Source of the DNA: an uncultured Chloroflexia bacterium
Lineage (GTDB): Bacteria > Chloroflexota > Limnocylindria > Limnocylindrales > CSP1-4
Assembly (NCBI GenBank): GCA_963720825.1
Contig: CAVRGY010000002.1
Span: 31,672 to 95,671, forward strand
Direction: 5' to 3'
DNA: 64,000 nucleotides
Shown: positions 2,393 through 35,247 of the stretch, in pieces
Layout of the letters: each line of letters starts with the position of its first letter
Position numbering within the stretch: position 1 is the first letter of the stretch
Program-made: the position numbers and the translations under genes
The notes under the pieces: model-generated
The model's input: the letters and a program-made list of their open reading frames with translations, nothing else
Told to the model about the DNA's origin: nothing
Database searches by the model: none

Positions 2393-3055
2393 ATGGGAAC
2401 CAGATCGATCGGCCTGCCGGCGAATGTCGACGCGTACGTCCGGCGCTGGGGCGTCCGCGAACCGGAGATCCTCGGACGCCTTCGGGAGGAGACCGCATCG
2501 CACCCGCGCGCCGGGATGCAGATCTCGCCCGACCAGGGTGCGCTCCTGGGGCTCCTGGTCTAGCTGCTCGACGCGCGCCGGTGCCTCGAGATCGGGACGT
2601 TCACCGGGTACTCGTCGCTCGCGGTGGCGCTGGCCATGCCGGACGACGGCACGATGGTGTGCTGCGACGTCTCGGATGAGTACACCTCGATCGCCCGCCG
2701 CTACTGGGCGGACGCCGGCGTCGCGCACAAGGTTGACCTCCGGCTGGGACCGGCGGTGGACACCCTGGACCGGCTGCTCGCCGATGGCGAGGCTGGGACC
2801 TTCGACCTCGCGTTCATCGATGCCGACAAGCCCGGCTATGCCGCCTACTGGGAGCGCTGTGTCGCCCTCGTCCGGCCGGGCGGCGTGATCGCGATCGACA
2901 ACGTCCTGTGGGGCGGCGCGGTCGCCGACCCGTCGGTCGATGATGCCGCCACGCGAGCGATCCGTGAGGTCAACGAGCTCGTCGCCTCGGACACCCGGGT
3001 GCGGCACGTGATGCTCGCCATCGCGGACGGCATGACGATCGCCCGCAGGCAGTAG
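2393..3055 (+). CDS. Class I SAM-dependent O-methyltransferase (family 3, caffeoyl-CoA OMT-like), interrupted by an in-frame TAG at 2561-2563.
   Basis: The N-terminal part (…MQISPDQGALLGLLV) and the C-terminal part (LLDARRCLEIGTFTGYSSLAVALAMPDDG…FIDADK…) are in the same frame, separated only by a TAG codon. The motifs match the SAM-binding fold of OMT family 3. Confidence 0.7.
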
Positions 3056-3118
3056 GGCACCCGACCCAGGGCCGGCAATTGCCCGACGTGGGAAACTGCA
3101 GGTCCGCGGAGGCCGGAT

Positions 3119-5234
3119 TTGCAGATCGATCGCAAGGCGCCGGAACAGCCGCTCGACGCGCCCGCAGCGGACGCGCTCGAGAAGTTCGACGCGCCCGCCG
3201 GCTCAACGTCCAGCCGGCCCGACCCCCGCCGAGGACCCGCCCGCGGAGCACGACGCGTTCGCCGGATCCGCGTTCCCGCCGATCGGTGACTACGCCTTCC
3301 TGTCCGACGGCGAGGTCACGGCGCTGGTTGCTCCCAGCGGCACCGTCGAGTGGATGTGCCTGCCGCGGTTCGACTCCCCGAGCGTGTTCGGCGCGATCCT
3401 GGATCGGGACGCCGGCGGATTCCGCCTGGGGCCCGCGGACGTCATGGTCCCCGTCGCGCGGCGCTACCTGCCGGGCACGATGGTGCTCGAGACGAGCTGG
3501 GGGACGCCGGGCGGCGGCTGGGTGATCATCCGCGACGTGCTGCTCATGGGACCGTGGCACAACACCCAAGAGCGGTCGCATACCCAGCGCCGGGCACCGA
3601 CCGACTATGACGCCGAGCACGTGCTGCTGCGGACCGTCCGCTGCGTCAACGGCGAGGTGCAGCTGACCCTCGACTGCGAGCCGGTGTTCGACTACGGGCG
3701 AGCCCTGGGCGTCTGGAGCTTCACCGGCGCCGACTACAGCCAGGGCATCTGTCGCGGGCCGGACGACGTGTCGGTCACGCTCACGAGCGACATGCGCATG
3801 GGCTTCGAGGGACCCCGGGCGATCGCACGGACGCTGATCAAGGAGGGCGAGACGCGCTTCGCGGCGCTGTCGTGGGGCGCCGGCCGGCCGCCGCGCACGG
3901 TCGAGGAGGGGATCGGGCGGCTGACCTGGACCGCGCACCACTGGCAGCACTGGCTGGCCCGTGGCCGGTTCCCGGACCATCCCTGGCGGTCGCACCTCCA
4001 GCGCTCGGCGCTGACGCTCAAGGGCCTGGCCTACGCGCCGACGGGCGCGATCGCGGCGGCTGCGACGACATCGCTGCCCGAGGCGCCCGGCGGCGCGCGC
4101 AACTGGGACTATCGCTACAGCTGGGTCCGCGACTCGACCTTCGCCCTGTGGGGCCTGTACACGCTCGGCTTCGACTGGGAGGCGAACGACTTCTTCTACT
4201 TCCTCGCCGACATGGCCGGGGCGGACGGCAGCATCCAGGTCATGTACGGCGTAGGGGGCGAGCGGACGCTCACCGAGCAGACGCTCGACCACCTGTCCGG
4301 CTACGAGGGCTCACGCCCGGTCCGCATCGGCAATGCGGCGTACAGCCAGCAGCAGCACGACGTGTGGGGCGCGATCCTCGACTCGTTCTATCTCCACACC
4401 ACGTCGCGCGACCGGCTCGACGATCGCATGTGGCCCATCCTCAGCGGGCTCGTCGAGGCGGCCATCAGGCACTGGCGAGAGCCGGATCGCGGGATCTGGG
4501 AGGTGCGCGGTGAGCCGAAGCACTTCACCTCGTCCAAGGTGATGTGCTGGGTTGCGGCGGATCGCGGTGTCCGGCTCGCACACCTGCGCGGCGAGGCGGA
4601 GATCGCGAAGCGCTGGCAGGCGGCTGCAGACGAGATCCGGGCGGACGTCCTGGCCAATGCCGTCGATGCGCGCGGCGTGTTCACCCAGCACTACGACACG
4701 ACGGCGCTCGACGCGTCGCTGCTGCTGCTGCCCCTGGTCCGGTTCCTGCCCGCAGACGACGAACGGATCCGGCGAACGGTGCTCGCCATCGCGGACGAGC
4801 TGACCGAGGACGGGCTGGTCCTGCGCTACCGCACCGAGCACACCGACGACGGACTGTCCGGCGACGAGGGGAGCTTCACGATCTGCTCGTTCTGGCTGGT
4901 GTCCGCGCTGGTCCAGATCGGGGAGATCGCCCGCGGCCGGCGCCTGTGCGAGCGGCTGCTGTCGCTGGCGAGCTCGCTCGACCTGTACGGCGAGGAGATC
5001 GACGCGGAGACCGGCCGACAGCTGGGCAACTTTCCGCAGGCGTTCACCCATCTCGCGCTGATCAACGCGGTGATGCACGTGATCGACGCCGAGGGCCGGC
5101 ACCCGCACGCGGGCATGCGCTCGTCGGCGTCCCGGGACGTCCGGATGGAGCGCGCCAAGTCGGCATCGATGGGCCCCCGGTCCGAGGACGAGGACGAGGT
5201 CGTGGACGAGGACGACGCGTCCTCGGACGACTGA
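3119..5234 (+). CDS. GH15 glycoside hydrolase (glucoamylase/trehalase-like). Inferred TTG start with a GGAGG RBS; frame break at the C5 run 3223-3227.
   Basis: Conserved GH15 N-terminus FPPIGDYAFLSDGEVTALVAPSGTVEWMCLPRFDSPSVF continues upstream of the listed ATG with no in-frame start. The adjacent frame offers TTG at 3119, six nt after GGAGG. It joins the main frame if one C of 'gaccccc' is removed. The core carries WDYRYSWVRD and the (alpha/alpha)6 toroid region. The C-terminal tail is acidic. Confidence 0.75.
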
Positions 5235-21658: not shown

Positions 21659-23447
21659 CTACAGGCCTGCCACGAGCCGGCCGAGCGCTCGACGGAAGGC
21701 GAGGCTTGACAGCCCGCGCCACGGTCCGCCGACGGTCCGCCGGAGCCGCGCCAGCTCCCGCTCGCGGTCGACGAGATAGCGGCCGATCGCCGCGCTCTCG
21801 AGCTCCGTGAGGTCGCCCGCGTGCTCCACCAGGTACTGGCGTGCGAGGGCCGCCGCCACGTCCGCGTCGTGGAGCCAGCCGAGGTGGTCCTGCAGCGCGA
21901 CGATCTTCTCGATGACCAGGCCCGCGTCACGACCGAGCGCCTCGCGCACGAACTCCAGCGTGTAGCGCAGCCACTTGGCCGCGATCCGGAGGTCGTGGAG
22001 GGTGGTCACGTCGGCCCATCGAAGCACTGGCTCGTAGGCCCGAACGCCCTTCGTACGCCGCCCAGATCCGCGACGGCATCGTGTCCCGCACGCGATGGGG
22101 CTGGGTCGGCCCAACCGGGAGGGCGCCCGCTCCCTCCGCCTGGACGAACTCCACGTATGCGTCGACCCACTTGCGGTAGCGACCCGAATCGAGCTCCCGG
22201 AGCAGCACCTCGCGGGCCCCGTCCCGTTGCCCGCGCCATCCCTCGATCAGCCGGTCGAAGGCCGCCGCCTCGCGAGCCGGCAGCTGGTCGCGATGCGTCT
22301 CGGCGGCCCCGATCAGCACATCGAGGTCTCGGACCGCACCCAGGTCCCGGGCGACCTCGCGCAGCCGGACCCGGTGGCGGGCCGTCGCCTTGCGGTCGAA
22401 CGACTCGCCGAACACACGCCAGGCGGCACGCTGTCGCCGGGTGGCCACGCGCATCGCGTGCAGCTCCGCATCGTCGCGGCCGATGCGGGTGCCGGGCTCG
22501 CGGGCGATCATCCGGGCCAGGTGGAACCGCAGCACCTTGCGACCAGCCTCGGCGAGGTGGTCCTCGGCGATGACGCCCGGCGCCTTGGGCACGGTGATCC
22601 GCGGCACGACCGGCTCCGGCGCCTCGGTGGCGGTCGCGTCGGTGCCCGGTGCGGGCACCTCGACCGGTCCGCCGGCCACGCTCGTGCGGGGGCCCTGGGG
22701 CGCTTCGCGGAGGTCGCCGCCGGCCGCTGCCGAACGCTCGTCGGCTCCGTCGCTGCGTTCATCGTCCGCCCCCGGCTCGCCCGTGCCCGCCCGGTCGTGC
22801 TCGACCGCCTCCAGCGCCCGCTCGAGCTTCGACGACTCGGCCGGGACCAGCTCCTCGACCTCGGCGAGCAGGTCCGCCAGCGGCTCGAGGGCCGCCTCGC
22901 CGCCCTCGATGAGCTCCACCTCGAGCTCTGCGAACCGGTCCAGCACCCGCTCGCCGGCGACGATCTCCACGTCATCGACGGACAGCTCGACGACAACCCC
23001 CTCGCGCCCGTAGGTCCGCTTGTGCCGGGTCTGCCGGACGGTCACGAGGTCCGTGAGCGGGGCGCCGCCCAGCAGCTCCAGCACCGCGGTACGAGCCGCC
23101 GAGTCGGGCCACGCATCGGGCGGAACCTCGGCGATCGCCGGGCCTTCCAGCTCCTCGCGCCGGTGGAGCGCGCCGCCGGCGGCGTCCGAGCGAAGGGACT
23201 TGAGCGTGAGCACCGTGACATCGCCCGCCGACCGGAATCGCCCGGCGTAGCCCGCCGCGGCCAGCCGGCCATCGGCCGTGTCGACGTACCGGTCCTCGTG
23301 CTGGACCGTCGCGGCGGGGGCCAGCGCGGTGAACCCGGCCAGGTCGTCGGCGGCGATCAGGCGCGTTCCGGCGCCGGTCCCCGACATGCGGAACTTGAGC
23401 TCGACCTCGACCGCGCCGCCGGGTCGCGGGACAGCGACATCGGTCAC
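21659..23447 (-). CDS. CYTH-CHAD protein: triphosphate tunnel metalloenzyme domain plus a conserved-histidine alpha-helical (CHAD) domain. Frame break near 22040-22055. GTG start overlaps the ppk1 stop.
   Basis: N-terminal VEVELKF…ELEV… CYTH beta-barrel motifs. CHAD helices follow (…LHAMRVATRRQRAAWRVF…). The final CHAD part (…LHDLRIAAKWLRYTLEF…IEKIVALQDHLG…) continues in ORF 21659..22114. Confidence 0.75.
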
Positions 23448-25615
23448 GCGCGCGGGTCCATCGATCCGACGTTCGAGTGGGGCCGTCTCGGCACATCCGC
23501 GGCGGCGGCTGCGGCTGCGGCATCCTGCTTGAGCACGGCGAACGTGTCGATCTCGCCGGCGGCCGACGTCAGCACCTCGGTCCGGACCCATCGCCCGTCG
23601 GACTGCAGCTGCCACGAGCGACGGTCATCGGACAGCATGACCTCGATGATGCGCGCGAGCCGGACCTGCGCCTCGTGATCCTCGACCGGGGTCACCACCT
23701 CGACCCGGCGATCGAGATTGCGCTCCATCAGGTCCGCCGACCCGATGTACCACTCGGGGCGCCCGCCATTGGCGAACATCCAGATCCGCGAGTGCTCCAG
23801 GAACTCGCCGATGATCGAGCGCACGCGGGCCTGCTCGGAGGCGCCGGGCACGCCGGGAACCAGGCAGCACGCGCCACGGATGATGCACTCGATCTCGACG
23901 CCCGCCCGCGCCGCCTCGTACAGCGCCTCGACCACCTGGGTGTCGACCAGGGAGTTCACCTTGAGCACGATCCGCGCCTGCTGGCCCGCGCGGGCGTTCG
24001 CCGCCTCCCGCTCGACCAGCTCGAGGAACCGCGACCGGAGCGTCATCGGCGCCACGAGCAGCCGGCGGAACACGCTCTGGCGTGACAGCCCGGTCAGCAC
24101 GTTGAACAGGTCCGTGACGTCCGCGCCCAGCTCCTCGCGGCAGGAAAGCAGGCCGAGATCCACGTACAGGCGAGCCGTCCGCGAGTTGTAGTTGCCGGTG
24201 CCGATGTGGACGTAGCGCCGGAGCCCGTTGCCCTCGCGCCGGACGACGAGCGCGACCTTGCAATGGGTCTTGAGGCCGACCAGCCCGTACACGACGTGGG
24301 CGCCCGCCTGCTCCAGCTTGCGCGCCCAGACGATGTTGACCTCCTCGTCGAAGCGCGCCTTGATCTCGACCAGGACCACGACCTGCTTGCCCTGCTCCGC
24401 CGCGCGGATCAACGCCTTGACGATGGGCGAGTCGCCCGACGTCCGGTACAGGGTCTGTTTGATGGTCAGCACCAGGGGGTCATCCGCGGCCTGCGAGATG
24501 AACCGCTCGACGGAGGCGGTGAACGAGTCGTACGGGTGATGGAGGAGCAGGTCCCCGGCGCGCATCTGCGCGAACACGTCGACCGGCTCGTCCTCGTCCG
24601 GCGGCAGCAGGCGCTGGGGCACGACCGGCGTGAAGGCCGGCGCCTTGAGGTCGGGGCGGTCGAGCTCGGCGAGCTGCCACAGCGCCGTGAGGTCCATCAT
24701 CCCGGCGACCTCGAAGCTGTCGTCCTCGCGCAGGCCGATGCCGTTGATCAGGATCTTGCGCGTCAGCTCCGGCATCGAGCGCTCGACCTCGAGCCGGACC
24801 GCCTCGCCGAAGCGACGCCGCCGGACCTCCTCCTCGATCGCGAGCAGCAGGTCGTCGGCCTCGTCCTCCTCGATCGCGATGTCCGCGTCGCGGGTGACCC
24901 GGAACAGGTGTGTCTCGAGGATCTCCATGCCCCGGAACAGCTCGTCGAGGTTGGCCTCGATGACCTGGTCCAGGAGCACGAACCGGTCGCGCTCGACCTC
25001 GAACAGGCGGGGCAGGATCGGCGGGATCTTGACCCGCGCGAACCGCTTCTCGCCGGTCTCGGGGTCCCGCAGCCCGACCGCGATCGACAGCGACAGGGTG
25101 CTGATGTACGGGAACGGGTGGCCAGGATCCACCGCGAGCGGCGTCAGCACCGGGAAGATCTCGTCGTGGAAGCGGCGCCGGAGCGTGTCGTGGTGCTCGG
25201 GCACGTCGTCGTAGTCCACGATCTCGACGCCCTCGGCGGCGAGCTCCTCGCGGATGGTCGTGAAGATCAGGGAGTGCTCGGCGACCAGGTCACGGACCCG
25301 GGCCCGGATCGCGTCCAGCTGCTGTGCGGGGGTCAGGCCGTCCGAGGACAGGTGCTGCGAGCCCGCCAGGTCCTGCCGCCGCAGCCCGGACACGCGAACC
25401 TGGAAGAACTCGTCGAGGTTGGACGCGAAGATCGCCAGGAACTTGACGCGCTCGAGGATCGGGTTGCGCGCGTCCCGTGCCTCGTGGAGCACGCGCGCAT
25501 TGAACTCGATCCACGACAGCTCGCGGTTGAGGATCGGGGCCTTGTGGTCGTGCACCGCCCGCCGTCGTCCGCGGGGCGCGGCGCGGGGTCCGGGAGCGGG
25601 TCGAACGGCGGTCAT
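23444..25615 (-). CDS. ppk: Polyphosphate kinase 1.
   Basis: ILNRELSWIEFNARVLHEA…FLAIFASNLDEFFQVRVSGL… and two PLD-like HKD regions. About 720 aa, typical of PPK1. GAGAGG RBS. Confidence 0.9.
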   Translation of the reverse strand: MTAVRPAPGPRAAPRGRRRAVHDHKAPILNRELSWIEFNARVLHEARDARNPILERVKFLAIFASNLDEFFQVRVSGLRRQDLAGSQHLSSDGLTPAQQLDAIRARVRDLVAEHSLIFTTIREELAAEGVEIVDYDDVPEHHDTLRRRFHDEIFPVLTPLAVDPGHPFPYISTLSLSIAVGLRDPETGEKRFARVKIPPILPRLFEVERDRFVLLDQVIEANLDELFRGMEILETHLFRVTRDADIAIEEDEADDLLLAIEEEVRRRRFGEAVRLEVERSMPELTRKILINGIGLREDDSFEVAGMMDLTALWQLAELDRPDLKAPAFTPVVPQRLLPPDEDEPVDVFAQMRAGDLLLHHPYDSFTASVERFISQAADDPLVLTIKQTLYRTSGDSPIVKALIRAAEQGKQVVVLVEIKARFDEEVNIVWARKLEQAGAHVVYGLVGLKTHCKVALVVRREGNGLRRYVHIGTGNYNSRTARLYVDLGLLSCREELGADVTDLFNVLTGLSRQSVFRRLLVAPMTLRSRFLELVEREAANARAGQQARIVLKVNSLVDTQVVEALYEAARAGVEIECIIRGACCLVPGVPGASEQARVRSIIGEFLEHSRIWMFANGGRPEWYIGSADLMERNLDRRVEVVTPVEDHEAQVRLARIIEVMLSDDRRSWQLQSDGRWVRTEVLTSAAGEIDTFAVLKQDAAAAAAAADVPRRPHSNVGSMDPRA

Positions 25616-26061: not shown

Positions 26062-27036
26062 ATGGCACGGCACGTGCGTCGGGTGGCCGGTGTGGCTTCC
26101 CGCATGGCCCTGAGAATTGTCCGGATCGCACACGGTGCAATCACGCTGGTGCTGCCGGTTGTGCTTGTGGCGGGCCTGGCGCTTGTCCGGGCTGGCGGAA
26201 TCAGCGCCGGCTCCGCCAGCGGGCCTGCCCTCAACGCCGGCGCTCAGCAGTCCGGACTCTCCGCCCGCGCCCAGCTGGACCGCGGCGCGACCCAGATGAC
26301 GGCGTCGCTGTCGTCTGGCTTCGATTTCACGGTGGTCGCCCGCTCGACGCTGTACGCGAAGCCCGACGGTCCGAAGATCGAGGTGCCCGACCCAGCCGAT
26401 CCGTACACGGTTGCCGGCGTCGCCGACAGCTACGACCTCGGCGCAACGGCCGCCATCGGCACCGTCAAGGGGGAGGACTTCTTCCTTCAGCTGTACGACG
26501 GCCCGACGGACCCCGGAAAGCCGGTCGACCTGGCGACGCTTGCGCCCTCGCTCGCGGCCCTGGTGCGCGACGGCCACACCTGGCGCAACGACGGCGACGG
26601 GTGGTATGTGACCGATCAGCCGCCCGGCATCGGGCTCGACCCGCGCACCGCCGCGCTGCTGCCCGCGATGCTGCGCAACACGACCGCGGCGAAGGATGCG
26701 CCTGCGACGCTCCTCGCCGGTCAGCAGCTGCCGACCGTGGCAGCGGCCGCCGCCGTCGCCGACGCACCCGGGTTGATGGCGATCGATGCGGCCCCGTTCA
26801 CCGTGTTCGCGCAGCCGCTCTCGTTCGCGTTCGATGCCAGCGGCCGGCTGGCCCAGCTGACGGCGACCATGCGCAACACGCGGATGGCCGACTTCGACCT
26901 CATCGTGGTGACCACGATCACCTTCGACTACGACCATCTCAGCGCGTTCCCGGACGCCTCGCCCACGGCGCCACCACCACCGACGCTGGCGCCGGATCCG
27001 ATCGGTGCGGTCGGGCAGCCGGAGGCCTCGCGATGA
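26062..27036 (+). CDS. Membrane-anchored hypothetical protein. Its stop overlaps the RHS start (ATGA).
   Basis: N-terminal TM segment AITLVLPVVLVAGLALV. GC3-biased frame. A GGAGG RBS for the downstream RHS gene lies in its 3' end. Confidence 0.5.
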   Translation: MARHVRRVAGVASRMALRIVRIAHGAITLVLPVVLVAGLALVRAGGISAGSASGPALNAGAQQSGLSARAQLDRGATQMTASLSSGFDFTVVARSTLYAKPDGPKIEVPDPADPYTVAGVADSYDLGATAAIGTVKGEDFFLQLYDGPTDPGKPVDLATLAPSLAALVRDGHTWRNDGDGWYVTDQPPGIGLDPRTAALLPAMLRNTTAAKDAPATLLAGQQLPTVAAAAAVADAPGLMAIDAAPFTVFAQPLSFAFDASGRLAQLTATMRNTRMADFDLIVVTTITFDYDHLSAFPDASPTAPPPPTLAPDPIGAVGQPEASR

Positions 27037-30000
27037 CCGCCCGTCCGCGCCTGCTACCGCGCCTGCGCGTGGTGGCGATGACGATCGTCCTGACCGTCAC
27101 CGGCGTTGCGGTCCAGGCGGCTCCGGTCGCCCCGTCCCACGACATCCCGGATCACCCCTTCAGCCTGCCCCTGCCGTTCGGGCTGGGTCCGCAGACGGCG
27201 CTCGCCGCCTACTGCGCGAGCGGCCCCTCGTTCCAGGGCAAGCTCACCCAGCAGCTCGTCAACTCGGGCACCCCGTCGACCGCGGCCTGGATCACCAGCA
27301 ACACCGTCTACGGCTGGATCAGCCGTGTCGACGCCGCGTGGAGCTGCACCCTCTACCGCCGCTACTCCGGGCTCACCTGGAACGTGACCTCGACTCTGGG
27401 CATCTTCGACTACGGGACGATCATCAACTCGACGTCAGTGTCCTGCAACTGGGGCGTCGGCTCGACCGATTACCTCAAGGCGAACGGCACCCAGGTCTGT
27501 CCGTCGACCGACACCTCGAACGTGCTCTCGATCCAGCTCACCAAGGAGCGCGTCTACCAAGCTGACGCCTCGCACAACGGCGAGGGCGACTACAGCTTCG
27601 TCCACTCGGACTGCGCCACGACCCCCTACTACGGAGCCGAGGTCCAGAAGGGGTCCGAGGCGTCGCCGACCTCGTTCAGCACCGGGACGACCAACAACCG
27701 CCCGGGCGCGAACTGCGACCCGATCGCGCTCGACAGCACCAACACGAGCCAGACCGTCACCTACGACGCGACCGTGCCCACGATCGCGATCAGCAGCCCG
27801 TCGACCGGGACCCCGGCCGCTCCTGCGGTCGTGCCGTCGGCCTTTGCCACGGTCGAGTTCGACGCGACCGACGCCGTCGCGGGCTTCGGCGGCACCAATG
27901 GCTGGAGCCTGCAGCGCAAGGTGGCGACCCCCTCGGGCGGTGCCTGCGGCACGTTCGCGAACGACGGCGCCGCGGTGACCGGGACGAGTGCCGGCACCGG
28001 TCAGCACAGCGGTCAGAGCCTGACGGTCGGCAAGTGCTACCAGTGGGTGCTCACCGCCGCCGACCAGAACGGCAACGCGGCGACCGCGGTCACGTCGGGG
28101 ACGATCCTGACGGACACCAGCGCCGTACTGGGGTCACAGCCCCAGCTGCGGACCGAGTCCTGGGACCTCGGCGCTGGCGACAGCCTCGCTGTCAGCGTCG
28201 GCTCGGGCAACGTGCTCATCAACCACCCGATCGTGAGCCTGCCGATGCGCGGCAGCTCGCTCGACATCGGGCTCACGTACAACAGCCAGGATGCCGGGAA
28301 CGTCGGGTTCGGGGCCGGCTGGCGGCTCAACGTCCAGCGCCGGCTCACGCTCAACGCCGACAACACGGTCACGTTCATCGACGGCAGCGGCGCACGGTAC
28401 ACGTTCACCAACCCGCAGACCAACGGCACCGTCACCACCTACCCGCGGCCGTCCAACCTGTACGCGACCCTCGTGAAGGACACGAGCCAGCAGGTCGAGT
28501 TCACGCTCACCTACAGCGGCCAGAGCCTCGACATGTTCGACATCGCGGGCTCCGAGGGCCTGCTGACGCGTGAGCAGGACCGGTTCGGTAACGGGGTGAC
28601 TCTCGCGTACGTGTCCGGGACCAACCGGATCACGACGATCACCGACACGGCGGCCTCGCCCAACCGGGTCGTCAACTTCGCCTATGACGGCTCCAACCGC
28701 CTGACCTCGATCACCGACTGGGCATATGTGTCGGGGGGCGTCGTCCAGACGGGCGCGACCGGCAGCCGCCGGGTCAGCCGCTTCTTCTACGACGGCTCGT
28801 CCAACCTCGCAGGCTGGGCCGACCCGCTCAACACGACCGGATCCTGCCCAACCGGCGGCAGCCACCTCACCTGCCTCACGCTCACCAACGGACTGGTGAC
28901 CCGGGTCGGCAAGACCCAGACCTACGAGACGCTGGCGTCCGGCGTCCTGGGTTCCGCGACCCGGGCGATGAACACCGACGTCGTGTACTCAGGCTCCGAC
29001 GTCGCCGCGGTCAAGGACGCCGAGCAGGTCGCAGCCAGCGGCAGCGGGGCGACCTTCAGCCACCTCAATCCCGGCCAGACACAGGTCGTCCGCCCCGGGA
29101 CCCCCGCCTCCACAACCCGATATACGCTCGCCTCGCCCACCGACGCATACGGGCGGATCACCTCGGTCAAGCGCCTGCTCGGCGCATCGACCTGGATCGA
29201 GCAGCGGACGGCGTACAACAGCACGTACCCGATCGAGCCTGCCTCAATCACGGACAACTACGTCGACGGGACCCCGTCGGACACCGCGCCCGACGAGGAC
29301 CGGATCACCGCCTACACGTACGTCACGAGCTCGCTGGGCCTCGTGTCGCGGCTGACCGAGCCGCTGACCGCGTCCACCCACCGCACGACCGACTACACCT
29401 ACAACGCCCACAACGACGTGACCCAGCAGATCGTCGCGCTCGATGGCTCAGGCTCGATCCGGACGATCACCAGGTTCTGCTACGACGCGTCGTGCACGAC
29501 ATCGGGCAACGGGCTCACGCTGCTCAGGCGGATCGACAACTACGTTGACGGAACGGCCGGCAACGGTGCCGCCAACGTCGAGGACGTCACCACGAGCTTC
29601 ACGTATGACACGGCCTGCGCGGGCGGCGCGACCTGCGGCCAGGTCACCCGCGAGACGCGTGCCAACTACACCACGGCCGGCACGCTGCTCGACTCGCGCG
29701 CGATCGGGCACACCTACGATGACAAGGGCGACGTCACCTCGGACATCGCGAACTACGTCAATGGCACGGTGACCAGCCCGGGCGACGACATCACGCCCAA
29801 CGCCACCACCGGCGCGCGCACCGACCTCACGATCGCGCACATCTACGACACCGCTGGCAACAGAGTGTCTACTGCCGACCCGCGGCGCGCGATCGAGTCA
29901 GCCAAGGGCACGGCCCTCAACGCCGACGACTTCATCGGCCGCTCGACCTTCGATCCGCTGGGCCAGACCCTCACCAGCACGACCGCGACGACGCCCGGGA

Positions 30001-32678
30001 TCTTGATCACCCAGAAGACCGCGAGCTCCGTCTACGACGAACTGGGCAGAGTCCGCCAGGCAACGGACTTCGGTGGTCTCGTGACCGGGACCGAGTACGA
30101 CCGAACTGGGCGTGGCACGAAGACGTTCGAGGACACCGATGGCGCCGGCGCCATGGCCGCCGTCCAGACCGGCGCGACGACGCACGACGCCGCCGGACGC
30201 GTCCTGACGATGAAAGATCAGCGCCAGGTCGCATCGGGCAGTCTCGGCTACAACCAGATGACCTACGACGAGCTGGGCCGCGAGATCGACGTGACTGAAG
30301 CTGCGGGGAGCAGCCCGAGCGTGGCCTCCACAACCCACTTGGCGTACGACACTCTCGACCGCAAGACCGCCGAGGTGACCGCGTACGGGACGGCGACCGC
30401 GCAGACCACGAGCTACACGTACGACCTGGGCGGCCGGACGACAGCGGTCGACGACGAGTTTACGTGCACGACCGAGTCGTTCGACTACCGGGACCTCGTG
30501 ACCCAGACCGTTCAGGGCCACACAGGCGGCGGCTGCGGCACGAGCGGCTCGGAGGTGACGATCAGCCACGCCTACGACGGCCTCGGACGCGCGACGCGCG
30601 ACGAGATCGCCGGCGCCAGCCGCACGCGGGACGACACGTACGACGCTGCTGGCAACCGGCTGACTGCGGCGACGGCATCCTGGAACGGGAGCGCCTGGGT
30701 CAGCGCGAACGCGACGACATACACCCTCAACCCGCTCGACCAAGTGATGACCGAGGCAATCACTGGCGGCACCACGACGAAGCGGACATATGACCCCGCC
30801 GGCAACGTCGCCGATGTCTGCCGCTGGGAGGCCGGGGCGACCGTGGGCTTGTGCCTGTCCGCCGGCACGACCCCCTGGACCAACCCGCCGACCCACGTCG
30901 CTTCGAGCGCCTATGACGCCCGCAATCAGCGGGTCAGCCTGACCGACGGCACGACGGGCGCGACCACGACCTACGACGCGGACCACAACTACCAGGTGAA
31001 CGCGGTCTACGTGCCCACCGGCTCGGGCCGCGAGCATCAGACCCTCTACGGCTATGACGGCCGTCATCGGGTTACCTCGATCAGCCAGCAGCTGTGCGTC
31101 ATCAGCTCGGGCCACGCCTGCAGCTCGACCACCGCGACGGGCTCCGACATCTACGCCTACGACACGACCGACAACCGAACCCGCGTCGACGAGTCCAACG
31201 GCACGGCGTCGTCCGATCGCTACTACTGCTACGACGCCCGGGGCCAGCTCACGCGCGTCGACACGGCCGCCGGCTGCTCAAGTGGGTCGCTCGAGACGGG
31301 CACGTACGACACGGCGGGCAACCGGACCGACTGGACGATCAACGGTGGACTCCGGGTCCGCTCGGCATACGACGGCGAGGGTCAGCTGTGCGACGTCGAG
31401 TCCGGAGCGTCGCCGGGTGCGCCGTCATGCACCGGCGGCAACATCGCCTACGACGAGGCCGGACGAACCGCCGAGATCCCCAATGGTGAGGGCTTCTGGC
31501 GGATCCTGGCCTACGACGGTGAGGGCCGGATCACCGAGATCTGCGACGCGGCATGCACCGGGATGTCGACGCACCTCAATTTCACCTATGACGCAGATGG
31601 GCGGCGCACGTCGATCGACTTCAGCGAGGGCGGCACTGGCGAGAGCGTCACATTCCGATACGACGGCGACGTGGTCACAGCCGAGTATCTCGACGGCGTG
31701 CTCAACCGCGAGTACCTGACCGACGAGTCCGGGGCGATCGTCAAGATGGTAATCCCGACCGGCCAGTCAAACCCGGGCACGTACATCGTCGTCTGGAACG
31801 GGCACGGCGACGCGACCGGGCTGTGGCGGGTCAAGGCCGACGGCAGCCTCGAGCGCGCCAACACGTTCACCTACGGCACCTGGGGCGAGCCCGGCATCAG
31901 CTGGGGCACGAACAGCGACAACGCCAGCCAGCCGTACGGCGACCTCGGCTTCCGCTTCCTCTACGCCGGTCACTATGGCGTCATGTGGGACGATCGCAAC
32001 GGTCCGCCCCTCTACCTAATGGGCGCTCGCCACTACGACGCAGAGTACGGGCGGTTCCTCCAGCCGGACCCAAGTGCGGCGGAGGCGAACCTGTACGGGT
32101 ACGCCGGGAACGGGCCGGTCTCACGGGTTGATTCCTCGGGTGGATCCTGGTGTGCGTTGCTGCTCTCTGCCACTGCCACCGGTCCGGTTGGCATTGGAGC
32201 CGAGGCCCTCTGCTGGGGTATCACGGGCCTGCTAGCTCTGGCTCTCATCCCGCCCGTATCATCCCTGACCACTGAAATCGTACGCGCCGCCGAGAAGGCA
32301 GCTCGCCAGAATCGTCCGAGCCCCCGAAAATGCGCGGTAATCGGCGAGAACGCGCTGCGTGTCGAGGTTAAGGCAAGGATTTGGCATTGCGAGACCTACT
32401 CCCCGCAGATGAACCTGTGGCGAGGATACCGTGGTCCGAGCATCTCTGAGAAGTACGTACGCCAAGCGCAACTGCGAGACAATGCCAAATGGATAAGCAG
32501 GATGATGGCAGAGGGCAGGATCATCTTCGATATCGGGCCGGACCTAGTGGCGAGAGCTCGGGGGCAGCGCGATTTCCTCAGCCCCTATTACTTCCTCGAG
32601 TACCGGTTGACTTACAGCTATCCGGGCAGGGTCCCGTTGTGGAGGGGTTCGCTGTGGCGAGGGCTCCATCGTGGCTGA
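27033..32678 (+). CDS. Secreted RHS/YD-repeat polymorphic toxin. Has a Sec signal peptide, an RHS-repeat shell, an RHS-associated core domain and a ~180-aa C-terminal toxin tip of unrecognised family.
   Basis: Signal peptide MTARPRLLPRLRVVAMTIVLTVTGVAVQAAP. Dozens of YD repeats (YTYDxxGNR, YDALGR, YAYDGSNRLTS…). RHS core RHYDAEYGRFLQPDP…LYGYAGNGPVSRVDSSG. The GC content of the last ~500 nt is lower. Confidence 0.85.
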   Translation: MTARPRLLPRLRVVAMTIVLTVTGVAVQAAPVAPSHDIPDHPFSLPLPFGLGPQTALAAYCASGPSFQGKLTQQLVNSGTPSTAAWITSNTVYGWISRVDAAWSCTLYRRYSGLTWNVTSTLGIFDYGTIINSTSVSCNWGVGSTDYLKANGTQVCPSTDTSNVLSIQLTKERVYQADASHNGEGDYSFVHSDCATTPYYGAEVQKGSEASPTSFSTGTTNNRPGANCDPIALDSTNTSQTVTYDATVPTIAISSPSTGTPAAPAVVPSAFATVEFDATDAVAGFGGTNGWSLQRKVATPSGGACGTFANDGAAVTGTSAGTGQHSGQSLTVGKCYQWVLTAADQNGNAATAVTSGTILTDTSAVLGSQPQLRTESWDLGAGDSLAVSVGSGNVLINHPIVSLPMRGSSLDIGLTYNSQDAGNVGFGAGWRLNVQRRLTLNADNTVTFIDGSGARYTFTNPQTNGTVTTYPRPSNLYATLVKDTSQQVEFTLTYSGQSLDMFDIAGSEGLLTREQDRFGNGVTLAYVSGTNRITTITDTAASPNRVVNFAYDGSNRLTSITDWAYVSGGVVQTGATGSRRVSRFFYDGSSNLAGWADPLNTTGSCPTGGSHLTCLTLTNGLVTRVGKTQTYETLASGVLGSATRAMNTDVVYSGSDVAAVKDAEQVAASGSGATFSHLNPGQTQVVRPGTPASTTRYTLASPTDAYGRITSVKRLLGASTWIEQRTAYNSTYPIEPASITDNYVDGTPSDTAPDEDRITAYTYVTSSLGLVSRLTEPLTASTHRTTDYTYNAHNDVTQQIVALDGSGSIRTITRFCYDASCTTSGNGLTLLRRIDNYVDGTAGNGAANVEDVTTSFTYDTACAGGATCGQVTRETRANYTTAGTLLDSRAIGHTYDDKGDVTSDIANYVNGTVTSPGDDITPNATTGARTDLTIAHIYDTAGNRVSTADPRRAIESAKGTALNADDFIGRSTFDPLGQTLTSTTATTPGILITQKTASSVYDELGRVRQATDFGGLVTGTEYDRTGRGTKTFEDTDGAGAMAAVQTGATTHDAAGRVLTMKDQRQVASGSLGYNQMTYDELGREIDVTEAAGSSPSVASTTHLAYDTLDRKTAEVTAYGTATAQTTSYTYDLGGRTTAVDDEFTCTTESFDYRDLVTQTVQGHTGGGCGTSGSEVTISHAYDGLGRATRDEIAGASRTRDDTYDAAGNRLTAATASWNGSAWVSANATTYTLNPLDQVMTEAITGGTTTKRTYDPAGNVADVCRWEAGATVGLCLSAGTTPWTNPPTHVASSAYDARNQRVSLTDGTTGATTTYDADHNYQVNAVYVPTGSGREHQTLYGYDGRHRVTSISQQLCVISSGHACSSTTATGSDIYAYDTTDNRTRVDESNGTASSDRYYCYDARGQLTRVDTAAGCSSGSLETGTYDTAGNRTDWTINGGLRVRSAYDGEGQLCDVESGASPGAPSCTGGNIAYDEAGRTAEIPNGEGFWRILAYDGEGRITEICDAACTGMSTHLNFTYDADGRRTSIDFSEGGTGESVTFRYDGDVVTAEYLDGVLNREYLTDESGAIVKMVIPTGQSNPGTYIVVWNGHGDATGLWRVKADGSLERANTFTYGTWGEPGISWGTNSDNASQPYGDLGFRFLYAGHYGVMWDDRNGPPLYLMGARHYDAEYGRFLQPDPSAAEANLYGYAGNGPVSRVDSSGGSWCALLLSATATGPVGIGAEALCWGITGLLALALIPPVSSLTTEIVRAAEKAARQNRPSPRKCAVIGENALRVEVKARIWHCETYSPQMNLWRGYRGPSISEKYVRQAQLRDNAKWISRMMAEGRIIFDIGPDLVARARGQRDFLSPYYFLEYRLTYSYPGRVPLWRGSLWRGLHRG

Positions 32679-33111
32679 TCCAGAGATCACCGCCGCCTGG
32701 ATTGCGGCCGCGGTACGCCGTTGCTTCAGCTTTCTCGAGCGTGATCACAAATACCGCTGGGACGGGTCCACGGCGGACGGGAGGAAGGTCGTCGCGCATT
32801 TCTCCCGACCAGGTTCACAGGTAACTGTTCTGTGGGACGACTGGGAGGGAATGCTCGAAGCGTCGCTCGCTCTGTCAGAGGACTCGGGCACTCGGATTGT
32901 GGACGTGAAGAATCTCCTTTTCGTTCTCGGGCTTGAGCCAACCCAGCGAGGCCCGATCGACGTCCGGAGCCAGAGCGAGATCGACGGCGCAATGCGACTG
33001 ATGGCAGCTGGCCTCGCGGTTGGCCTGGGACCGATATTGGGGGGCGACAGGTCAGCGCTGAGGCAGATCGAGGACTTCGTGGAGGCGGTCGATCCAGGCG
33101 GCATCCGGTGA
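32671..33111 (+). CDS. Candidate cognate immunity protein (146 aa, overlaps the toxin stop by 8 nt).
   Basis: Small ORF translationally coupled to the toxin C-terminus, with lowered GC. Placement is typical of RHS/CDI immunity genes. No recognisable family. Confidence 0.45.
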   Translation: MADPEITAAWIAAAVRRCFSFLERDHKYRWDGSTADGRKVVAHFSRPGSQVTVLWDDWEGMLEASLALSEDSGTRIVDVKNLLFVLGLEPTQRGPIDVRSQSEIDGAMRLMAAGLAVGLGPILGGDRSALRQIEDFVEAVDPGGIR

Positions 33112-33288: not shown

Positions 33289-33569
33289 TTGGGCCCCGTA
33301 CTTGCCGAGACGTCCGACGCGCTCGGAAATGCCACCACCTACGAGTACGACGCGAACGGCAACCGTGCCTCGAAGACCGACGGCACCGGGACGACGAGCT
33401 ATGCGCGCGACGAGCAGAACCGGCTGACCTCGGTGACCACGCCGGGCCCGGTCACGGTCGGCTACCGCTACGACCTAGACGGCAACCGACGCCGGCTCAT
33501 CTATCCCGACGCCACCGCGGTCGACTACACCTTCGACAAGGCGGACCGGATGGCGTCGCTCAAGAATTC
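33289..33569 (+). pseudogene. RHS (YD-repeat) gene remnant, truncated by the IS3-family insertion.
   Basis: TYEYDANGNRASKTDGTGTTSYARDEQNRLTSVT…YRYDLDGNRRRL…YTFDKADRMASL. Internal YD repeats. The frame runs straight into the IS inverted repeat at 33570. Confidence 0.5.
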
Positions 33570-33599
33570 TTGGACACTTACGGGCTCGGATAGGTGTGA

Positions 33600-34537
33600 T
33601 ACGGGATGCGCCAGGTAGGCCGTGATCGGGGTCGCGAAGTCGAGCGCTTGTGGGGCCGGATCCCGTTGTACAGCTGGCGGAATGCCTCGACCTCGTCGAC
33701 GAGCGCGATCACGTCCGGGATCTCGAGACGGTAGAGGTGCTCGTACTTGAGGGTCTGGTAGAACGCTCGACGACGCGTTGGTCTCGGGCGCGTGGTAGAG
33801 GTTCCGCACGTGGGCGAGCTCCGGCAGACTGGCGATGAAGTGGAGGAAGTCCGAGCTCTTGTACGCGGGACCGTTGTCGGTCACGATGGTCACGGGCTCG
33901 ATCTCGCCGTCTCGTGATCGATGCAGTCCTGGAGGAGGGGATGACCCAGGAGCGTTCGGCGAGCGGCGATTGCGGCCTCGACCGCAGCGATGGCGTAGCG
34001 GGCGCCGGTGGTGCCGCTGACGGGGATCCCGAGGCAACAGCTTGGTCGCGTAGTCGACGACCGGCGCCAGCCGCCAGGTCCCGTGGCGGCTGGTCTCGAA
34101 CTCGGTGAAGTCGGTCTGCCACACGCGGTAGCGGCGTGTAGGCGCCTCGACGAACAGGGCCCGGCGCGCGACCGCGAGCTGCCGTCGTTCGGCCTGGTAG
34201 CGCACGGGCAGGAGCAGATTGCGCCGCGCCAGCGCCCGCAGCACCGAGCTGCGCGACACCGCGCACGCCGTCCGCGCGCAGCATCGCCCAGATCTTGCGG
34301 TGGCCCCATGCTGACCAGCGATACGCCTGCTCGGCCGCACCGGGTCTCGATCGCGTCGACGACCGGGGCCGGCCAGCGGCGAACCGACCGCCCGTGCAGG
34401 TAGCGCAGCCCGCCAGTGGTACCAGGTGGAGCTCGGGATGCCCAAGGCGGGCGAGGAACCGGCGGACCGGGACCGCTCTCTCGGCCCTCAGCTGCTCGAG
34501 CTCTTCGTACGCGGGTAGAGCGCCCCCTTTTTTCGCC
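33600..34537 (-). pseudogene. IS3-family transposase OrfB (rve integrase core), disrupted by at least four frameshifts.
   Basis: Segments (GHRKIWAMLRADGV; RRYRVWQTDFTEFETSRHGTWRLAPVVDYATKLL; IVTDNGPAYKSSDF; PETN…; RPHQALDFATP) follow the correct IS3 OrfB order but alternate among three frames. Confidence 0.6.
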
Positions 34538-34814
34538 ACACGCGGAGCTCCACGTAGGCTTCCCCGAGCGCGGACGTCAGGTCGTCGACCTGGTCCGCGA
34601 GCTCCGTCTCGCGTCTCGAGGCGAGGGAGACCGCGTTGTCGCCCCGGGCGAGGCTCTCTCGGCCGCCTTCGAGGAACTGCTTCTGCCACTTGGCGATCGT
34701 GGTCTGGCTCATCCCGAGCCGACGCGCCACCTCGACCTGGGTGCCCTCTCCCTTGAGCACCGAGAGCACGATGGCGAGCTTCTCGTCGGGCGTCTTGAAC
34801 GGCTTGCGGCCCAC
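34488..34814 (-). CDS. IS3-family transposase OrfA (helix-turn-helix).
   Basis: MGRKPFKTPDEKLAIVLSVLKGEGTQVEVARRLGMSQTTIAKWQKQF… Ends at the AAAAAAG slippery heptamer. Confidence 0.75.
   Translation of the reverse strand: MGRKPFKTPDEKLAIVLSVLKGEGTQVEVARRLGMSQTTIAKWQKQFLEGGRESLARGDNAVSLASRRETELADQVDDLTSALGEAYVELRVWRKKGALYPRTKSSSS
34527..34533 (-). promoter_or_regulatory. Programmed -1 ribosomal frameshift heptamer A AAA AAG of the IS3 element.
   Basis: Minus-strand sequence cgAAAAAAGggggcg at the orfA/orfB junction. Confidence 0.6.
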
Positions 34815-34897
34815 GTCGTCATCACCTCGTCAGGCCCCGGCAGGGATCACAGTGCCGAGTGTCCAACTCAGTCTGACGCAGGACAAATGCCCTAATC

Positions 34898-35247
34898 CTA
34901 TGCTTGGTCTCGTCGCTGTCATCGCGGTCTGGGTACTCCTCCTTGGGTACGGTTGGTCCAAGACAACCGGTCGGCCCAGGGAGCGGCTGGCGGCGATTTG
35001 GTGGCTCCTGGTTGTCATGGCGATTACCCTGGGGTTGCTCGCCATGTTCGCCGCGGTCCCGTGGGCTGGCTCCCTCGTCGTGCCATTCTGCTTGCTGTCG
35101 TTCGGCGCCTACGCGGCGAGGCTTCAGGAGAGCAAAGCAACGATCCGAGGCATCAACCTCCGTCGGAACGGGCCGATTTGGTTCGTTGTGGGGCTCATGT
35201 GGCTGATCGTGGACATCGTCTGGCTCTTGTCGGGTTCACTGACTTGA
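34898..35247 (+). CDS. Small membrane protein with four TM helices and low GC. Possible orphan immunity protein.
   Basis: MLGLVAVIAVWVLLLGYGW…LLVVMAITLGLLAMFAAVPWAGSLVVPFCLLSFGAYAA…IWFVVGLMWLIVDIVWLL. Noticeably lower GC than the surrounding DNA. Confidence 0.4.

Follow-up and report, generated by a model that had tools for sequence, protein, structure and literature searches.

A putative toxin/immunity cassette with an uncurated domain pair on a putatively Sec-exported RHS protein of an uncultured Chloroflexia bacterium

The WapA protein of Bacillus subtilis is a Sec-exported, wall-associated protein built of YD/RHS repeats and carrying tRNase tips at its C-terminus. New enzyme activities have in the past come from RHS proteins and other polymorphic toxins. 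We describe here the C-terminal tip of an RHS protein, together with the open reading frame (ORF) that follows it, at 32130-33111 in a 64-kb stretch of DNA from an uncultured Chloroflexia bacterium (contig CAVRGY010000002.1, positions 31,672 to 95,671; the whole stretch of 64,000 nucleotides is referred to below as the window). In our judgement these two constitute, with a probability of about 0.8, the toxin/immunity cassette of a Sec-exported, WapA-like RHS polymorphic toxin. The system is of a known kind, an RHS polymorphic toxin, and carries an uncurated toxin-immunity domain pair; because the type of system is ordinary, what is of value in it is the new domain pair rather than any new principle.

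The resemblance to WapA/WapI of B. subtilis extends to the signal peptide, the long RHS body, the Rhs core, the variable C-terminal toxin and an immunity gene located directly downstream. The differences are that the toxin and immunity domains of the window are unrelated to any WapA-CT or WapI with a Pfam or PDB entry, and that the guanine-plus-cytosine (GC) content of the window is 71.5%. By analogy, the protein would also share with the Rhs effectors of type VI secretion systems (T6SS; RhsA, Rhs1/Tre23, Tse15) and with TcC of the ABC toxins a YD-shell with Rhs_assc_core that encapsulates a self-cleaved, C-terminal toxic domain, the cassettes being swapped by recombination with a compositional break left behind. 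Unlike these, it possesses a signal peptide and the sequence DSSGG in place of DPxGL; no PAAR or VgrG was detected in the RHS protein itself by the Pfam scan and no TcA/TcB partners were seen, the flanking genes not having been scanned for T6SS components. With polymorphic toxin domains at large (PMC3482391; 10.1101/2021.10.19.465003) the tip and its relatives have in common a short C-terminal domain, varied carriers (RHS, PT-HINT), a partner conserved downstream, orphan cassettes and a wide distribution across phyla. The features of the gene and its cassette are as follows.

27033-32678, + strand: RHS/YD-repeat polymorphic toxin gene, 1881 amino acids (aa), from Pfam and NCBIfam matches and ORF calls
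27033-27122, + strand: Sec-type signal peptide, ending between MTARPRLLPRLRVVAMTIVLTVTGVAVQA and AP (by eye)
28191-28406, + strand: DUF6531, the typical N-terminal plug region of RHS proteins (Pfam, E 1.2e-11)
31956-32141, + strand: Rhs_assc_core (TIGR03696), query residues 1641-1702 (NCBIfam, 46.7 bits versus a cut-off of 32.5)
32145-32261, + strand: hydrophobic, Gly/Ala-rich pre-toxin segment, 39 aa (19-aa Kyte-Doolittle mean up to 1.5)
32262-32675, + strand: putative toxin domain, with its conserved core at 32316-32675 (family alignment)
32659-32663, + strand: Shine-Dalgarno-like GAGGG, lying 7 nt upstream of the next ORF's GTG (sequence)
32671-33111, + strand: putative cognate immunity gene, 146 aa, isoelectric point (pI) 4.9, no signal peptide, GTG start

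The RHS gene begins with the ATG at 27033, which has GGAGG upstream and overlaps the stop codon of a 324-aa ORF (ATGA); once this start is taken, the protein has the 1881 residues given in the original prediction, which had been made from the sequence alone. RHS_repeat was recognized in four stretches of the protein (Pfam, 7e-12), as was YD_repeat_2x (NCBIfam). The core motif RHYDAEYGRFLQPDP (32028-32072) is located inside Rhs_assc_core, and VDSSGG (32127-32144) is found at the expected self-cleavage site of the Rhs core. The tip that follows comprises 177 aa (32145-32675), close to the 180 or so first estimated, and its initial 39 residues or so, which are rich in Gly and Ala, form the hydrophobic stretch that had been noted at the same time. 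The GTG of the 146-aa ORF at 32671 and the RHS stop codon at 32676-32678 give the 8-nt overlap described originally.

The relatives of the tip were sought by a full HMMER (phmmer) scan of 1.84 billion representative proteins, which yielded approximately 18 true relatives, the best being P0003 (3.3e-15, 40% identity), P0004 (4.2e-12) and P0005 (1.5e-11). In P0003, P0005, P0006 and P0019 an RHS core lies N-terminal to the domain. A profile from a tighter alignment, scanned over one genome per GTDB species, gave 30 loci from Micromonospora, Allorhizocola, Tepidibacillus, Eubacteriaceae, Gammaproteobacteria, Burkholderiales, Verrucomicrobiota, Myxococcales, Spirochaetes, a cyanobacterium and Acidobacteriota. 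The tip is thus a member of a family of C-terminal domains of about 105 aa, recognizable by the motifs VIGEN..RV, N..W, (I/V)DIGPD and Y..E. In all 30 loci the domain ends no more than about 30 residues from the stop codon (no more than 10 in 25 of them; 5-10 in the window). Many of the carrier proteins are 1400 to more than 2100 residues in length, and an RHS-core motif is located 120-430 residues upstream of the domain in at least 20 of the loci. In two loci, L017 and L022, a PT-HINT C-terminus (VHN[TA]CG) directly precedes the domain, as judged by eye. When a hidden Markov model (HMM) was built from the 30 loci with the window left out, the tip scored 56.2 bits (E 1.7e-19), as compared with at most 8.1 for 2000 shuffled sequences.

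Over 45 sequences six positions (G, V, A, D, G, E) are invariant and five (I, E, R, N, Y) nearly so, and a Trp, W1820 in the window, is conserved in most members. The tip carries all of the residues conserved in the family, namely G1771, E1772, R1776, V1777, A1781, N1817, W1820, D1833, G1835, Y1853 and E1856. An AlphaFold2 model of the toxin, based on a 27-sequence alignment, is of alpha/beta type with a predicted local distance difference test score (pLDDT) of 89.5 and a predicted template modelling score of 0.84. Its elements are strands at 24-27, 87-90 and 123-125, a short strand at 43-44, and helices at 31-40, 63-83, 95-99 and 108-117. E1772 is placed after strand 1 and D1833 at the end of strand 3, the long helix that follows holding Y1853 and E1856. 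Foldseek found nothing significant for this model in the PDB (best E 0.15, TM-score below 0.45) or BFVD. The original prediction could place the tip in no known toxin family by eye.

Two groups of loci within the family deserve separate mention. Orphan cassettes and arrays occur in this family. L006 appears to be an array of orphan cassettes; at 2475-3482 its first cassette is followed by a second, in which the N-terminal junction of the toxin (VGSEWG.YA...) is shared with P0026 and P0014, the C-terminal domain is unrelated, and a 169-aa ORF comes next, much as in a typical orphan toxin/immunity array. P0012, P0022, P0024, P0027, P0029 and P0030 (loci L002, L042 and L043) form a stand-alone acidic subfamily (pI 4.4-5.1; VIGEQQ.RVDYAA...IDTGPAE) with no carrier domain and with a C-terminal NFPWxYDPSTY extension; one copy adjoins a type IV secretion system coupling protein.

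The curated collections searched contain neither the tip nor its partner. Pfam, NCBIfam and PADLOC gave no match for the tip or the 146-aa ORF, PHROGs gave none of note, and the central members of the toxin family matched nothing in Pfam or NCBIfam. Searches of the PDB by sequence and by four profiles returned noise alone (eL39, the MurD C-terminal domain with E 0.44, DHPS with E 0.9, Nup62), and no relatives were found on viral contigs. The sole toxin member with a source name, WP_334457255.1 of Micromonospora, is called a "hypothetical protein" in NCBI and UniRef. Zhang et al. 2012 (PMC3482391) contains no motif set matching the toxin or the immunity domain; in our literature search the family motifs were printed in no paper and no description of either family was found. 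The families PT1-PT9 of Nachmias et al. (10.1101/2021.10.19.465003) were considered for the tip and rejected, as was Tox-ARC, a domain of too great a size for which Pfam has a model; PD-(D/E)xK, GIY-YIG, HNH, HEPN, BECR, RSH, NTase and Fic were rejected by motif reasoning alone together with Pfam. The comparison did not extend to the Pandoomain Tox1-24 families, with one of which the toxin family may coincide. Of the original description of the tip as belonging to an unrecognized family, the lack of any curated match stands; the tip is not unique, since the family spans many phyla.

Word-indexed searches of 5.8 billion proteins retrieved only P0001 and P0002, both encoded on one ENA metagenome contig (L001). 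This contig represents the same locus, with 99% identity, many indels and an insertion sequence (IS) inserted at window positions ~32016-32020, and was not counted as independent evidence for that reason. The IS element (L001 8345-9998; DDE_Tnp_1_4) sits within the RHS core, a short way upstream of the tip, and turns the tip and the immunity gene into an orphan-like cassette.

The partner of the toxin is conserved as well. An ORF of 140-165 aa (195 in one case) abuts or overlaps the toxin stop codon in 28 of the 30 loci, and 27 of these 28 ORFs belong to a single BLAST-linked family of about 150 aa, which therefore adjoins the toxin in 27 of the 30 loci. The one member checked is called "hypothetical" by NCBI, Pfam had no match for any of the nine downstream proteins scanned, and a search of the PDB by sequence gave no relative of the family profile. 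The HMM of this family recognized the ORF following P0004, a close toxin relative of the window tip (6e-12), and those following P0011 and P0026 (~5e-7). The distances among toxins and among their partners co-vary (Mantel Spearman r 0.49, a value reached by none of 5000 permutations). On sequence grounds, a carrier-borne C-terminal family with a conserved partner supports the original interpretation as a toxin with its immunity gene.

The 146-aa ORF of the window scored 6.2 bits against the family HMM at first, and 10.2 bits when three bridging sequences had been added. The latter is a weak score; its E value in a single comparison is 3e-5, and it exceeds all of 5000 shuffles (maximum 6.9). 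The match is in register (model 5-63 versus residues 6-64), and the ORF ranked first, with E 0.035 (the next having 0.84), when the HMM was run over all the 736 segments obtained from the window in six frames. BLASTP against the immunity protein of locus L041 (L041i) gave E 0.004 over the full length, and in a multiple alignment the ORF matches the family over its whole length, with the C-terminal L.GD...(I/L)V motif in common. The GC contents of its three codon positions (0.69/0.48/0.73) favour coding on the + strand over the overlapping antisense ORFs. With moderate confidence, judging by these comparisons, we take it to be a divergent but genuine member of the immunity family.

The composition of the cassette sets it apart from the gene that carries it. 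The GC content of 32130-33111 is 0.617 versus a window mean of 0.715 (standard deviation 0.026); only 0.24% of 982-nt windows in the 64 kb are as low, and all of the lowest overlap this span. The drop is mainly in third codon positions, where the RHS body has a GC content (GC3) of 0.911, the tip one of 0.70 and the immunity ORF one of 0.73, other genes of the window having 0.84-0.97. The GC drop of the original prediction is thus real, this span being the lowest in the window; the RHS body itself has a GC content of 0.68 and not 0.72. Because GC3 falls from 0.91 in the RHS body to 0.70-0.73 in the cassette, a separate origin is suggested; this fits the cassette having been gained or swapped independently of the RHS body, as was proposed from the outset. 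Promoter or terminator signals above chance were not detected.

From these data, and from what is known of RHS proteins, a course of events may be put forward. The RHS shell would enclose the tip, which would be released by self-cleavage at the Rhs core, between VDSSGG and SWC, and be delivered to neighbouring cells; the hydrophobic segment of about 39 aa would help it to pass the membrane, and the basic alpha/beta domain of about 105 aa would act in the cytoplasm of the target cell. In the producer, the acidic 146-aa protein would block the toxin by direct binding. A cytoplasmic target is suggested because no partner protein has a signal peptide or transmembrane helix (as seen by eye), and a polyanionic substrate because the toxins are basic, with a median pI of 9.8; the toxin of the window has a pI of 10.3 (net charge +10.6) and its partner one of 4.9. 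The hydrophobic segment is accessory, because none but the closest RHS relatives (P0003, P0005 and P0006) have kept it and it is absent from L017, L020 and L022, where the toxin domain comes almost straight after HINT or the RHS core; membrane entry is possibly its role.

As for the chemistry, the domain might be a metal-dependent phosphodiesterase, that is a nuclease, using E1772, D1833 and E1856, aided by R1776, N1817 and Y1853. The model would be comparable to the Toprim and PIN-NYN Rossmann-like metallonucleases, in which about 100-130 aa of alternating strands and helices present one acid just after strand 1, a second where strand 3 ends, and more downstream. It differs from these in having GE rather than EG or D[ST]N and DxG rather than DxD, with no significant match in Pfam or by Foldseek. 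In view of these differences in motif and of the lack of any significant match, a metal-dependent nuclease acting through E1772/D1833/E1856, although it is the activity that we prefer, is proposed only tentatively, at clearly less than even odds.

Several observations speak against parts of this interpretation. No structural or sequence link of the tip to any nuclease reached significance, and the only PIN/NYN-like matches (4rou, a LabA-like viral protein) lie within the noise. The presumed cleavage motif of the window is non-canonical (DSSGG versus DPxG[LW]), P0003, P0005 and P0006 having DPDG or DPSG. The members of the stand-alone acidic subfamily, which have no delivery domain, may perhaps not be toxins at all. 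The immunity assignment of the window's own ORF relies on a weak profile score of 10 bits and on position, and a single-sequence model of the immunity protein is poor (pLDDT 52); its top Foldseek match, p32/gC1qR with E 0.12, is not significant and the model was unusable in this respect. Finally, replacement of the partner (immunity switching) apparently occurs in the P0005/P0006 branch, because a different family of proteins of about 160 aa follows these toxins (L007 2275-2751 and L040 2080-2577), the two proteins being 41% identical to each other. The toxins of this subclade have DIGPS or DIGPG, and in P0006 the conserved Glu is replaced by Q.

A bolder view of the same domain, which we regard as somewhat unlikely, is that of a new enzyme fold whose chemistry, neither that of a nuclease nor of an NADase, is new to interbacterial toxins, with a new immunity fold, distributed over at least ten phyla on RHS carriers, the actinobacterial branch having gained a hydrophobic entry segment of its own.

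An N-glycosidase-type activity of the same cassette appears unlikely too. The toxin would then destroy NAD(P)+ or nucleotides, or depurinate RNA, a catalytic Glu (E1856 or E1772) being assisted by Y1853 and W1820 stacked against the base, in the manner of TIR, NDT-like or RIP-type enzymes. The conserved Y..E followed by R in most members, together with the Trp and Asn, would suit such an enzyme, and so would the small alternating strand-helix units of the model; moreover, NADase tips are common on RHS proteins (for example PMC10539506 and PMC13285283). Against it, no profile match to TIR, RES, Tox-ARC, ART, TNT or NDT was found in Pfam or NCBIfam, nor any by Foldseek, and a small-molecule substrate needs no strongly basic surface charge.

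We consider it very improbable that the downstream ORF is no immunity gene, being instead a frame left open by chance in DNA rich in GC, or some unrelated gene, with the immunity function located elsewhere or the tip inactive. The profile score of just 10 bits, the antisense ORFs that overlap the frame, and a sole database homologue that is the same locus in another sample are what such a view can draw upon; it has to contend with codon-position GC contents that fit this frame and strand, a Shine-Dalgarno-like site combined with the 8-nt overlap, the end-to-end family alignment down to the C-terminal L.GD and the best family-HMM match in the whole window, and with a tip in which all catalytic candidates are intact. 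Hardly credible is killing at the membrane, with the segment at 32145-32261 forming a pore or depolarizing the cell and the soluble domain a mere accessory: the 39-aa stretch is indeed kept in the three closest RHS relatives, but the family core does without it (L017, L020, L022), the soluble domain is where the invariant residues, all polar or charged, are located, and the immunity proteins are soluble and have no transmembrane helices.

The reading as a toxin/immunity cassette of a Sec-exported RHS protein is therefore retained. Both of its families range from Actinomycetota and Bacillota to Pseudomonadota, Verrucomicrobiota, Myxococcota and Spirochaetota, and neither is covered by a Pfam or NCBIfam model or has a structure that has been solved or a neighbour by Foldseek. 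With a confident toxin model and only a few invariant residues to consider, the toxin family lends itself to direct testing.

The remaining features adjoin the RHS gene and its cassette.

26062-27036, + strand: membrane-anchored ORF, 324 aa, no family match, its stop codon overlapping the RHS start (ATGA)
33289-33618, + strand: RHS-repeat remnant, a 109-aa ORF bounded by upstream stops, its 3′ side cut by an IS3-like element (Pfam RHS_repeat, 1.3e-16)
33525-34814, - strand: IS3-like element, with orfA containing a helix-turn-helix (34488-34814) and orfB with a partial rve match (Pfam)

The same 324-aa ORF also precedes the RHS gene in L001; the membrane-anchored protein, which is translationally coupled to the RHS gene, may be an export or assembly partner. 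The remnant at 33289-33618, which comes shortly after the immunity gene, is left over from a second RHS gene. In the IS3-like element orfB is apparently frameshifted in the window, the L001 copy being intact with 325 aa. A 203-aa ORF (34636-35247, + strand) with several hydrophobic helices and no Pfam match lies in a second patch of low GC content (~0.62-0.63) and might encode an orphan immunity protein of the membrane or be a passenger gene of the IS. Just upstream of the RHS operon, in L001 as in the window, is a polyphosphate kinase gene (23444-25615, - strand), and the neighbourhood of the cassette is otherwise of an ordinary chromosomal nature, with GC3 values of 0.84-0.97.

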